Assembly: GCA_046717345.1 (NCBI GenBank)
Contig: JBKJVN010000153.1
Span: 9,698 to 73,697 of the forward strand
DNA from: Candidatus Limnocylindria bacterium
GTDB taxonomy: Bacteria > Chloroflexota > Limnocylindria > QHBO01
Direction of reading: 5' to 3'
DNA length: 64,000 bases
This document shows, piece by piece, positions 1 to 3,275 of the stretch. How positions within the stretch are numbered: the stretch's first letter is position 1; every line of letters begins with the position of its first letter. The position numbers and the translations under genes are program-made. The notes beneath the pieces were generated by a model that was not told the origin of the DNA, searched no databases, and was given only the letters and a program-made list of their open reading frames with translations.

Positions 1-1
1 C

Positions 2-637
2 TGCGACGGTAGCGGCGAGAGCGCGGTGTCCAATCCGCCCCGAGAATGGGCGGAGGACGCGGTGCCGCCGTACTACAACGTGCCGCTCACCATCCCGCTG
101 TGCAAGAACAACCCGGGCAACGTCGGCTGGCTGGACTGGACGCCCACGGCCGGCGGAACCTCGGAGCTGATCACCGCCATCGGGCCACCCACCACGAACC
201 CCGAAATCGGTGTCCCGTCGTGGCAGTACATCACCTCGACCGGCAACGTGAACAGCGCGGGCGTCGAGGATGCCATCAACTACTACGCAGTCAACCAGAT
301 CCCGGTCCTGATCCCGATGTTCGACTCGACCTGCAACACCGAGCCCGACCTGCCCAGTCCGGGGACCCTCGACGTCGACCGCTGTCAACCCGCCAACGTA
401 GGTGGAAGTGGCCAGAACCAGTGGTACCACATTGCCCGCTTCGTGTCGTTCTTGATGGAGGATCCTAAGGGAGCCTTCGTCAGCGGATCCAACAAGTCCG
501 ACTGTGAGGAGAACGGCAACGGAGCGACGAGCTGCCTGAGGGGCATGTTCGTTCGATTCGTGACCACGGGCACCGTGGGACCGGGCTCGGGCGCCGTGGA
601 TCCCAACGCGGCCGTGGGGATCCAGCTCATCAAGTAG
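2..637 (+). CDS. TadG-like pilus-associated protein, C-terminal part (5' end outside window)
   Basis: Reading frame is open from nt 2. C-terminal ~200 aa is paralogous to the C-terminus of the 2043..3275 protein (shared motifs PLC..PGxVGWLDW, TGNVN, F(D)STC, YHI..F, CL(K/R)G(W/M)FV). Confidence 0.5.
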   Translation, partial: CDGSGESAVSNPPREWAEDAVPPYYNVPLTIPLCKNNPGNVGWLDWTPTAGGTSELITAIGPPTTNPEIGVPSWQYITSTGNVNSAGVEDAINYYAVNQIPVLIPMFDSTCNTEPDLPSPGTLDVDRCQPANVGGSGQNQWYHIARFVSFLMEDPKGAFVSGSNKSDCEENGNGATSCLRGMFVRFVTTGTVGPGSGAVDPNAAVGIQLIK

Positions 638-695
638 CGCGGCCAGCCGCCGAACGAGGCGGCCCCACGGCCGCCGAACGAGGCGGCCCCACGGC

Positions 696-737
696 ACGAG
701 GCCGCCCCTCCGCAGGGCGGCCTCGTTCGTTCCGTTG
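696..737 (+). terminator. Putative intrinsic terminator after first CDS
   Basis: GC hairpin acgaggccgccc/gggcggcctcgt with 7-nt loop, followed by a T-containing tract. Preceded by a 23-bp tandem duplication (gccgccgaacgaggcggccccacg x2, nt 662..707). Confidence 0.4.
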
Positions 738-849
738 CTGCGGCGCACCTGCCGGTATCCGCCGCAAGGTGGACAGCAAGGTGGGGCGCCCTATACTGGG
801 CGGCCGCGTGGGCCCCGCGGTTCGCCTCTAATCGCACGGAGTCACGCGG

Positions 850-1566
850 GTGTTCGCCCCTCCACCCCTGGATTCGCATCGTCGCGGCCAGGCCGTCGTC
901 GAGATGGCCATCATCCTGCCGCTGCTTGTCCTGCTGCTGGTCATGGCCCTGGATGCCGGCCGCCTGTTCTTCGGCTGGGTGGCGCTCCAGAACGCGAGCC
1001 GCATCGGCGCCGACTACGCCGCCAGCCACGCCGATGCCTGGGAGGGCCTCCCCGCGCCTCTGCAATACCAGCGAGACAATTACGCGCTACTGGTCAGCGG
1101 AGACCTCCAATCTCTCGGGTGCCAGGGTGATCCAGTGCCGCCACCGGACTTCGACCCGGATGGCGACGGGAACGAGGGATACGCAGACGGCGACCTTGTC
1201 CGGGTTGAGCTGGCGTGCTCGTTCGGTCTGCTGACGCCCCTGGCGGAGAGCTTTCTGGGCGCACCCGTAACCCTGCATGGCCGATCGGACTTCGCGATCA
1301 ACTCGACGATCGTGCTCGGCCTGCCGCCGCCCGGGAACCCGCCCCCACCCGTCAGCTGTCCGGCGGGCGAAGCGAAGGTGCCGGACCTAATTGACCAGCA
1401 AAATCAGGACGCGTTTACCATGTGGGTAGACGCGGGGTTCAACCGGGACTATTACAGCCCGCAGGTCACCAACCCGAACAAGAACCGGAGGGTAGCCACC
1501 CAGTCCCCTGACGCCGGCACTTGTGAGCCGCTGAAGAATACGCCGATGGCGGTGACCTTCTCATGA
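850..1566 (+). CDS. TadE-like pilus assembly protein (pseudopilin-like)
   Basis: N-terminal TadE family motif GQAVVEMAIILPLLVLLLVMALDAG. GTG start. Confidence 0.65.
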   Translation: MFAPPPLDSHRRGQAVVEMAIILPLLVLLLVMALDAGRLFFGWVALQNASRIGADYAASHADAWEGLPAPLQYQRDNYALLVSGDLQSLGCQGDPVPPPDFDPDGDGNEGYADGDLVRVELACSFGLLTPLAESFLGAPVTLHGRSDFAINSTIVLGLPPPGNPPPPVSCPAGEAKVPDLIDQQNQDAFTMWVDAGFNRDYYSPQVTNPNKNRRVATQSPDAGTCEPLKNTPMAVTFS

Positions 1567-2027
1567 ACCGATCGTCGCCACGAGGCCAGACGCTAGTCGA
1601 GTTCGCGCTGATCCTGCCGATCTTCATCCTGATTCTGGTTGGAATCTTCGATGGAGGGCGCCTCGTGTTCGCCAATCACACCGTGAATAACGCGGCCCGC
1701 GAGGGCGGACGTGAGGCGACCGTGAACCAGACGGTGGCCGATATCCAGGCCCGCGCGGCCCAGCACGCGGTGGCGCTTGACATCCCGGCCGCCACTGTCT
1801 ACGTCGACTTCCGTCTGCAGTCCACCCCTGACGACGAGGACTCGTGCGACGCCGACGTTGGCACGCAGAAGGTCGTTCTCTGCCTGGCGGTGATCCAGGT
1901 GACATACGACTACGTCGCCGCTACGCCGATCATCGGCGCCCTCATCGGCCCCATGCCGGTGACCGGGGAGGTGCGGTTCCCCATCGAGTTCAACTGCGTG
2001 GGGGCCGGCTGCCCCCTCGGCAACTAG
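1563..2027 (+). CDS. TadE-like pilus assembly protein
   Basis: N-terminal motif GQTLVEFALILPIFILILVGIFDGG. ATGA overlap with the upstream gene. Confidence 0.7.
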   Translation: MNRSSPRGQTLVEFALILPIFILILVGIFDGGRLVFANHTVNNAAREGGREATVNQTVADIQARAAQHAVALDIPAATVYVDFRLQSTPDDEDSCDADVGTQKVVLCLAVIQVTYDYVAATPIIGALIGPMPVTGEVRFPIEFNCVGAGCPLGN

Positions 2028-2042
2028 AGGAGGAGGGTCCGG

Positions 2043-3275
2043 ATGAATCCCGTGGCGAACCGCGCCGAGCGCGGACAGGTGCTGGTCATCGTGGCCATGG
2101 GCATGGTCGCCATCGTGGCCATGGTCGGCCTGGTCATCGATGGCGGCTACGCCTGGACCCGTCAACGGGACACCCAGAACGGAGCGGATGCGGTGGCCAA
2201 GGCGGGCACGATCGTCGTCCAGTACTTCCTTGCAGGGGATTCGCCAGTCCCGAATGACTACGACGTGGCCTGCGCGGCCGCGGCAACGGCCGCGGCCAAC
2301 GGCGTGGTGATCGAGGCCGCGGAGTACACGGACTTCCAAGGCCAGCCTCTGGATCCGGCTGCGGCAGTGGGGACTTGCACAGTCGACACCGGGGACGGCA
2401 TTCCTGCCGGCGCCCAGGGCGTGAAGGCCCGCACCTCGGAAACGTTCGAGACGTTCCTGATGCCGGTCATCGGTGTCCCGCAGCTGACAGCCATCGCCGA
2501 CGCGATCGCGGTGGTAGGTGCCCAGGACGCCGTCGCCGGCGGCGCGCTGCCGGTCACCTTCCCCGAGTCGAGCTCGGTCTGCGATCGGATCGACCCGGTC
2601 GAATTCACGATCCGCCGCGATGACGATGACGGCACGTGGGAGCCGTACGAGATCATCGACGAGGCGGACGCGACGATCGACAACCTGGCCATCGTCCCAC
2701 TGTGCGACGTCGGCCCGGGCTCGGTGGGATGGCTGGACTGGGGCTGCGGGCAGAACCTCCAGGATTCGATCACCGAGCCGTGCGAGGGGCTCTTCATCCC
2801 GATTCCGGCCTGGGTTCAGACCCACACGGGCAACGTCAACAACCTCGAGAACGAGTTGAGTCTCCTCGCAGGGAGCGACCCGGGGACACCGGAGCCCGAG
2901 GACACCGTTGTCGCCCTACCTGTCCATGACTTCACGTGCCGCCATGATGTCCCTGATCCCGATCCCACACCACACCCCCCCAGTGAGTGCACAGGCCCGC
3001 CGCCTTTCCCGGAGTGGTCAGGTATGGGCAACAACCTCAATTACCACATCCCATACTGGATCGGGTTCAAGCTGGACGGCGCCTTTACCGGCGGCAACGA
3101 TCCCGAGTGCGGCGAGGATCCCGGTTTGCCGCTCATAGAGAACCCCGACCCGCCGGGCAAAGTGGGTTGCCTGAAGGGCTGGTTCGTTGCCCAGTTCAGC
3201 GCGCCGGGTCCGATCAGCATCCGACCGATTGGCCCGGGTGAGACCGCCCCCTTGAGGGTGGTCCTCATCAACTAG
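2043..3275 (+). CDS. TadG-like Flp pilus assembly protein with Cys-containing C-terminal domain
   Basis: N-terminal TadG-like motif ERGQVLVIVAMGMVAIVAMVGLVIDGG. C-terminal domain is paralogous to ORF 2..637. Confidence 0.65.
   Translation: MNPVANRAERGQVLVIVAMGMVAIVAMVGLVIDGGYAWTRQRDTQNGADAVAKAGTIVVQYFLAGDSPVPNDYDVACAAAATAAANGVVIEAAEYTDFQGQPLDPAAAVGTCTVDTGDGIPAGAQGVKARTSETFETFLMPVIGVPQLTAIADAIAVVGAQDAVAGGALPVTFPESSSVCDRIDPVEFTIRRDDDDGTWEPYEIIDEADATIDNLAIVPLCDVGPGSVGWLDWGCGQNLQDSITEPCEGLFIPIPAWVQTHTGNVNNLENELSLLAGSDPGTPEPEDTVVALPVHDFTCRHDVPDPDPTPHPPSECTGPPPFPEWSGMGNNLNYHIPYWIGFKLDGAFTGGNDPECGEDPGLPLIENPDPPGKVGCLKGWFVAQFSAPGPISIRPIGPGETAPLRVVLIN

Follow-up and report, generated by a model that had tools for sequence, protein, structure and literature searches.

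Tandem TadE-TadE-TadG cassettes as candidate alternative Tad pilus tips in an uncultured Limnocylindria lineage

The binding specificity of Tad pili is only now being worked out, and the first model of a tip complex was presented in 2025 for Myxococcus. There, the TadE, TadF and TadG homologues KilL, KilM and KilN form heterotrimeric, interchangeable tip complexes encoded in four paralogous clusters, and the authors propose that TadG serves in general as the backbone, extended by a modular domain at its C-terminus (PMC12075869). Here we analysed related genes at the start of a 64,000-nucleotide stretch of DNA (the window) from Candidatus Limnocylindria of the Chloroflexota (assembly GCA_046717345.1, contig JBKJVN010000153.1, positions 9,698 to 73,697). 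Four minor pilin genes belong to two tandem TadE-TadE-TadG cassettes, of which the window includes only the end of the first and all of the second, and we consider it probable that such recombining cassettes encode alternative Tad pilus-tip complexes for one machine.

The locus resembles the Kil pilus in having several paralogous three-gene sets of the TadE/F/G type per genome for one machinery, interpreted as interchangeable tips. In both systems, the TadG-like subunit is large and extended at its C-terminus by a domain for which the PDB contains no homologue. The present locus differs in that the sets are placed in tandem (one to three), in or beside the main tad locus, and in a probably monoderm lineage of the Chloroflexota. 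The extra domain of KilN consists of two long alpha-helices and a large beta-scaffold with loops and small helices, whereas the module found here is Cys-rich and beta-rich. New here are this TadG head module, a dedicated direct-repeat promoter element, TadE proteins with PASTA or PKD domains, the tandem arrangement of the cassettes and the exchange of alleles. TadE, TadF and TadG of Aggregatibacter, Caulobacter and Pseudomonas have the same N-terminal domains and, in the TadE-type proteins, the same G/XXXXE leader, and their genes likewise stand in the order tadE-tadF-tadG downstream of tadABC. These canonical tad loci differ from the present one, in which there are two cassettes, a two-component system lies between tadC and the minor pilin genes, and the TadG C-terminus contains no Pfam domain. 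GspK of the type II secretion system (PDB 3ci0, chain K) shows only 6% sequence identity to the TadG-like protein and its insert is an alpha-domain, in contrast to the beta-rich, disulfide-rich head described here; the TadG module alone gave no structural match to GspK. A pilin module fused to a tip-displayed adhesive domain is also found in the type IV pilus proteins PilB (von Willebrand factor A domain) and PilC (lectin domain) of Streptococcus sanguinis (PMC12075869); however, these belong to class IVa, carry other grafted domains, and a sequence relation was not detected.

Minor pilin cassettes and the TadG head module

The sequence-only reading of this DNA had proposed a single four-gene pilus tail, with genes for a partial TadG-like, two TadE-like and one TadG-like protein. 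The four genes (open reading frames ORF1 to ORF4) were borne out by the gene calls and by hidden Markov model matches, all above the cut-off: TadE (PF07811) was detected in ORF2 (47.5 bits, E 2e-12) and ORF3 (65.1 bits, E 6.4e-18; cut-off 22.9) and Tad (PF13400) in the first 55 residues of ORF4 (30.3 bits; cut-off 22.3). The single unit did not hold, since a probable terminator and a conserved promoter split the genes into two cassettes.

For comparison, we used loci from a scan of representative genomes (77 loci; 79 in later comparisons, including L078). Locus L078 (assembly GCA_038040195.1) comes from a near-conspecific of the window genome and is 90% identical to the window at the nucleotide level over 13 kb; for L005 the identity is 83-95%. 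The gene order in L078 is tadZ-tadA-tadB-tadC, an OmpR-type response regulator, a histidine kinase, two [TadE TadE TadG] cassettes, DUF192, comF and hpf. In L005 and many other loci, tadZABC, regulator and kinase are likewise followed by one to three cassettes and DUF192. The window opens with the first conserved Cys in the C-terminal module of ORF1 and so excludes its N-terminal part; ORF1 is assigned to TadG on the basis of its L078 orthologue. It is 96.7% identical over 211 amino acids to the C-terminus of the first L078 TadG (407 amino acids, with a weak match to PF13400), showing that the window opens inside cassette 1.

Both TadE-type proteins have Flp-type prepilin leaders (G/XXXXE) with Glu at +5 (RG/QAVVEM in ORF2 and RG/QTLVEF in ORF3), and the start of ORF3 overlaps the stop of ORF2 by 4 nt. 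All 80 E-type homologues match PF07811; in their alignment, Q14 and E18 never vary, and at least 90% conserve G13. The C-terminal extension of the large TadE is variable, with PKD present in 26 of the 80 homologues and PASTA in 16 (E 0.01 or better; best 3e-13). The C-terminal ~65 amino acids of ORF2 (approximately nucleotides 1375-1563) reached 13.3 bits against PASTA (PF03793; E 0.085), which is below the cut-off of 23.2, while the majority consensus of 24 sequences (the ORF2 C-terminus and 23 homologous ones) reached 25.8 bits (E 1.1e-5), which is above it. The ORF2 C-terminus, although sub-threshold alone, can thus be read as a divergent PASTA-like domain. PASTA is a class of domains that binds peptidoglycan. 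A literature search for PASTA together with TadE found no paper.

The leader of ORF4 (RG/QVLVI) lacks the Glu at +5, and TadG proteins of the family have Ile or Val at this position. The absence of Glu5 is a hallmark of the capping subunit of type IV filaments, as in GspK. An AlphaFold2 model of the full-length protein, based on a 75-sequence alignment, has a predicted local distance difference test score (pLDDT) of 88.3 and shows an N-terminal helix (residues 8-64), a helix with a beta-sheet (72-161) and then a beta-rich C-terminal part. The module alone (residues 165-410, 85-sequence alignment) was modelled with a pLDDT of 87.1 and a predicted template modelling score of 0.86. As already noticed from the sequence, ORF1 and ORF4 share their C-terminal region: ORF1 is 30% identical to residues 218-402 of ORF4 (BLASTP E 4e-13), the shared module comprises ~230 amino acids, and the blocks PLC..PGxVGWLDW, TGNVN, xDxTC, YHI and CLxGxFV are conserved across the family alignments. 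Six Cys (C180, C221, C299, C316, C356 and C376) are near-universal in 302 family members, and the optional pair C235/C247 as well as C77/C112 in the N-terminal half are each gained or lost together. This joint appearance of Cys pairs fits sequential disulfides and an extracytoplasmic domain; the predicted pairs are 180-221, 235-247, 299-316 and 356-376, with 77-112 in the N-terminal half.

The sequence-only reading could not assign the shared region to a known domain, and neither of the two outcomes that it named as refuting, a lack of TadE/TadG matches or a well-described domain in this region, was observed. Neither ORF1 nor residues 60-410 of ORF4 gave a significant match in Pfam or NCBIfam, Tad_C (PF09977) stayed below threshold on the TadG C-terminal part (13.7 bits, E 0.13), and searches of the PDB with the modelled fold (Foldseek) and with the module sequence (phmmer) gave best E values of 0.22 and 7.6, respectively. 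An exhaustive phmmer search of 1.84 billion cluster representatives yielded 83 clusters, in which full-length matches have ~350-460 amino acids and carry the module C-terminally. Searching 5.8 billion proteins with a profile yielded 254 matches; the best 120 are mostly ~400 amino acids long, PF13400 is the sole Pfam domain among them, and entries without it are mostly shorter fragments. Since all searches for relatives failed and the matches are confined to TadG-like proteins, the module is an undescribed, lineage-restricted domain occurring only as the head of TadG-like proteins. More than 500 homologues of ORF4 were found, the top matches listed being ~350-450 amino acids long; those named come from metagenome-assembled genomes of Candidatus Limnocylindria or Chloroflexota, and their annotation goes no further than "Tad domain-containing" or "TadG-related". 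In the literature, nothing was found on Limnocylindria and pili.

Replacement and regulation of the second cassette

Nucleotide identity between the window and L078 drops to 62-84% in a segment (~600-3780) that includes intergenic DNA, cassette 2, the DUF192 gene and the start of comF, compared to ~98% (96-100%) in the flanks (Table 1). The Nei-Gojobori synonymous divergence (dS) from L078 is 0.77-1.01 for ORF2, ORF3, ORF4 and the DUF192 gene (0.85 for the latter), about fivefold higher than the 0.15-0.21 found for ORF1, comF and hpf. The nearest genomes also switch: in comF these are L078 and L005, in cassette 2 they are L001 and L002. L005 and L002 themselves are 58-81% identical to the window in the cassettes versus 94-99% in the flanks. 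The raised dS and the reversed similarity rankings indicate that cassette 2 and the DUF192 gene have, as judged from these comparisons, been replaced by recombination; with ratios of nonsynonymous to synonymous divergence of 0.14-0.32 across the genes compared (0.27-0.32 in the island), the cassette is still under purifying selection. Accelerated evolution in situ as the sole cause of the divergence of cassette 2 is ruled out by the same two observations.

Cassette 2 is preceded by a promoter region in which the direct repeat GCAAGGTG-N4-GCAAGGT (764-782) lies around a -35-like TGGACA (770-775), followed by a -10 box TATACT (792-797) and a GGAG ahead of the GTG start at 850. The degenerate form of this motif, GYAAGGYG-N4-RYAAGGT, has a 12-bp period with a TAnACT -10 box ~8-9 nt further on. 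We searched for it in 1.18 Mb, comprising the loci and the first 14 kb of the window, and found 40 matches, compared to a chance expectation of ~0.07 estimated from information content. A TadE-family gene on the same strand is located downstream of 38 of the 40, and the remaining two are at contig ends. For 36 of these 38, the E-type gene is 21-235 nt from the motif; for the two others, both in L051, the nearest gene recorded is a small one of the TadE type, at 113 and 856 nt. Altogether, the motif precedes cassettes in 36 of the 79 loci. In nearly all loci, the cassettes are preceded by genes for a regulator of the OmpR/PhoB type and its kinase, and the direct repeat is a putative operator of this locus-encoded OmpR-type regulator, which probably controls the cassette promoters. 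The direct-repeat architecture resembles the pho box. Upstream of cassette 1 in L078 (6020-6070), two copies of CCGCAAGGT are ~30 nt apart instead of 12, and this spaced pair may be a variant cassette operator. The sole other near-match to the operator in the window is GCAAGGTGGTGAGCAACGT at 53453-53471, with three mismatches.

The 212-nt gap between ORF1 and ORF2 also contains a tandem duplication and a hairpin, which the sequence-only reading had placed at the end of the cluster. Both elements exist, but they lie between the two cassettes, and the period of the duplication is 24 bp instead of 23 bp. The region 630-760 has a predicted folding energy of -76 kcal/mol (z -3.98 versus shuffled sequences). 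L078, L002 and L005 share this hairpin, and L004 has a hairpin of another sequence at the same site. This conservation supports a genuine terminator, and the hairpin is the probable intrinsic terminator of cassette 1. Downstream of ORF4 (stop at 3275), a terminator was sought by folding and none was found (z +0.4); the DUF192 gene starts 30 nt downstream. The 24-mer occurs as a single copy in L078, L002 and L005, showing that the duplication is private to this genome, and it looks like recent slippage without obvious function. A small hairpin can form within each 24-bp copy.

Alternative pilus tips and competing explanations

Several paralogous three-gene sets exist for this pilus, one full set and the end of another in the window and one to three in tandem across the 79 loci. 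In the mechanism that we propose for this monoderm-type Tad (type IVc) pilus of Candidatus Limnocylindria, each cassette encodes three minor pilins, a large one resembling TadE, a small one resembling TadE/F and one resembling TadG. The three proteins would form a heterotrimer that primes assembly of the Flp filament on the TadABC platform and then remains at the pilus tip. With a pilin-like N-terminal half and without the Glu5 that in other pilins neutralises the subunit above, TadG would be the top-most backbone subunit, and its disulfide-stabilised C-terminal module would be displayed as an exposed head, to which the large TadE might add its PASTA-like domain (PKD or PASTA in relatives). 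Two cassettes could in this way supply two alternative tips for one machine. Cassette 2 would be transcribed from its own promoter, probably under the OmpR-type two-component system encoded just upstream in relatives, and it is exchanged between strains by recombination, which is expected of a surface-exposed specificity determinant. The sequence-only reading had suggested a pilus tip or adhesin module, and by analogy this appears to be the best reading of the shared TadG region. A further-reaching version, in which the module is a new fold acting as receptor-binding head and forms, with TadE partners bearing PASTA or PKD, recombining specificity cassettes that are switched by a dedicated two-component system, is doubtful. 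If true, uncultured soil Chloroflexota might direct a single pilus at changing ligands, among them possibly peptidoglycan of neighbouring cells.

The single N-terminal hydrophobic helix without Glu5 would also suit a bitopic membrane protein that anchors or assembles the base of the Tad pilus, with the Cys-rich module facing the wall or envelope. Such a role has been proposed for TadG of A. actinomycetemcomitans and considered for the TadG-like proteins of M. luteus (PMC4322843), and the PASTA-like domain of the TadE partner could equally serve in wall anchoring. The pattern of duplication and recombination disfavours a basal anchor, which we regard as improbable. It might further be argued that the pilus serves DNA uptake, with the TadG module as DNA receptor and comF in the same function, since comF follows the DUF192 gene in the same orientation, many loci have this neighbourhood, and Flp pili are needed for natural transformation of Micrococcus luteus (PMC4322843). 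However, comF is encoded on the opposite strand in L011, L016, L018, L025, L026, L030, L032 and other syntenic loci, it lies outside the recombined island except for its first ~60 nt, and it adjoins the housekeeping gene hpf. The module also shows no resemblance to known DNA-binding pilin motifs, although no test aimed at this was made. A competence pilus is therefore very unlikely.

An enzymatic head, for instance a hydrolase acting on the envelope of a neighbouring cell, instead of a passive adhesin, seems the least likely of these explanations. The near-invariant residues C221, D232, N264/N266 and Y334 (H335 in the family consensus) within the conserved blocks would be in line with it, as would the PASTA-like domain of the partner and the contact-dependent killing that Tad tips mediate in Myxococcus (PMC12075869). 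However, no enzyme family is similar in structure (PDB) or sequence, and the conserved Cys behave as disulfide pairs, making a catalytic Cys unlikely.

Interchangeable pilus tips would mean that the same tip logic operates in a distant soil lineage, abundant and uncultured, where it is easily read from the sequence. The swapping of alleles at the population level marks the cassettes as the variable, exposed part. In addition, the locus offers a candidate new Pfam domain family, a testable pair of regulator and operator and a marker for strain variation in Limnocylindria.

Locus context and feature coordinates

The window starts within cassette 1, and flp, cpaB/rcpC and tadZABC are not visible in it; they are seen directly upstream in syntenic relatives. 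In L032, genes for a Flp-like pilin (30.6 bits, just under the cut-off of 32.2) and RcpC/CpaB are located upstream of tadZ. No secretin gene lies between these genes, which fits a Tad system of the monoderm type. A prepilin peptidase gene (TadV/CpaA) was found neither in the examined part of the window nor in the flanks of the relatives, which comprise up to 10 kb and reach only ~1.5 kb beyond tadZ on its upstream side. The one to three copies of the three-gene cassette in the 79 loci are tandem or divergent and are located either after tadZABC, response regulator and histidine kinase or in separate loci made up of regulator, kinase and cassettes. Ten loci (L029, L033, L036, L041, L043, L050, L058, L060, L062 and L066) have regulator, kinase and two to three cassettes without tadZABC within 10 kb, and apparently represent additional tip cassettes at a distance from the main tad locus.

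Positions 1-3700 of the window contain five open reading frames, all on the same strand, with comF and hpf next downstream. In ~36 loci, the last TadG gene is followed by the DUF192 gene, whichever way comF is oriented, and DUF192 probably belongs to the tad operon. The same position, at the end of such operons, has been reported for DUF192 in Firmicutes (Erysipelotrichales and Helcococcus; PMC12786226).

Table 1. Features in the first part of the window and nucleotide identity to locus L078
Feature	Position	Strand	Basis or value
ORF1, TadG-like gene, 3' part, cassette 1 (211 codons + stop)	2..637	+	translation; L078 orthologue
Tandem duplication, 24-bp period, GCCGCCGAACGAGGCGGCCCCACG x2.1, 100% identical	646..695	+	TRF
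Hairpin, 12-bp G+C-rich stem (696-707/715-726), 7-nt loop	696..726	+	RNA fold
Cassette 2 promoter region	764..797	+	promoter scan
ORF2, large TadE-family minor pilin, 238 aa	850..1566	+	PF07811
ORF3, small TadE/TadF-family minor pilin, 154 aa	1563..2027	+	PF07811
ORF4, TadG-like, N-terminal half, aa 1-164	2043..2534	+	hydrophobic alpha-1 helix + beta-sheet, pilin-like
ORF4, C-terminal Cys-rich, beta-rich module, aa 165-410	2535..3275	+	shared with ORF1
ORF5, DUF192, 120 aa	3305..3667	+	PF02643, E 7e-19
comF	3721..4389	+	54 nt past DUF192
hpf	4451..5005		housekeeping gene adjoining comF
Identity to L078	1-420		97-100%
Identity to L078 (cassette 2 and DUF192 with intergenic DNA and the start of comF)	~600-3780		62-84%
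Identity to L078	~3800-5600		86-96%
Identity to L078	beyond 5600		mostly 96-100%

The TadZ homologues encoded in L032 (1558-2796) and L078 (1-347) have an N-terminal receiver domain fused to a ParA/MinD-like ATPase.

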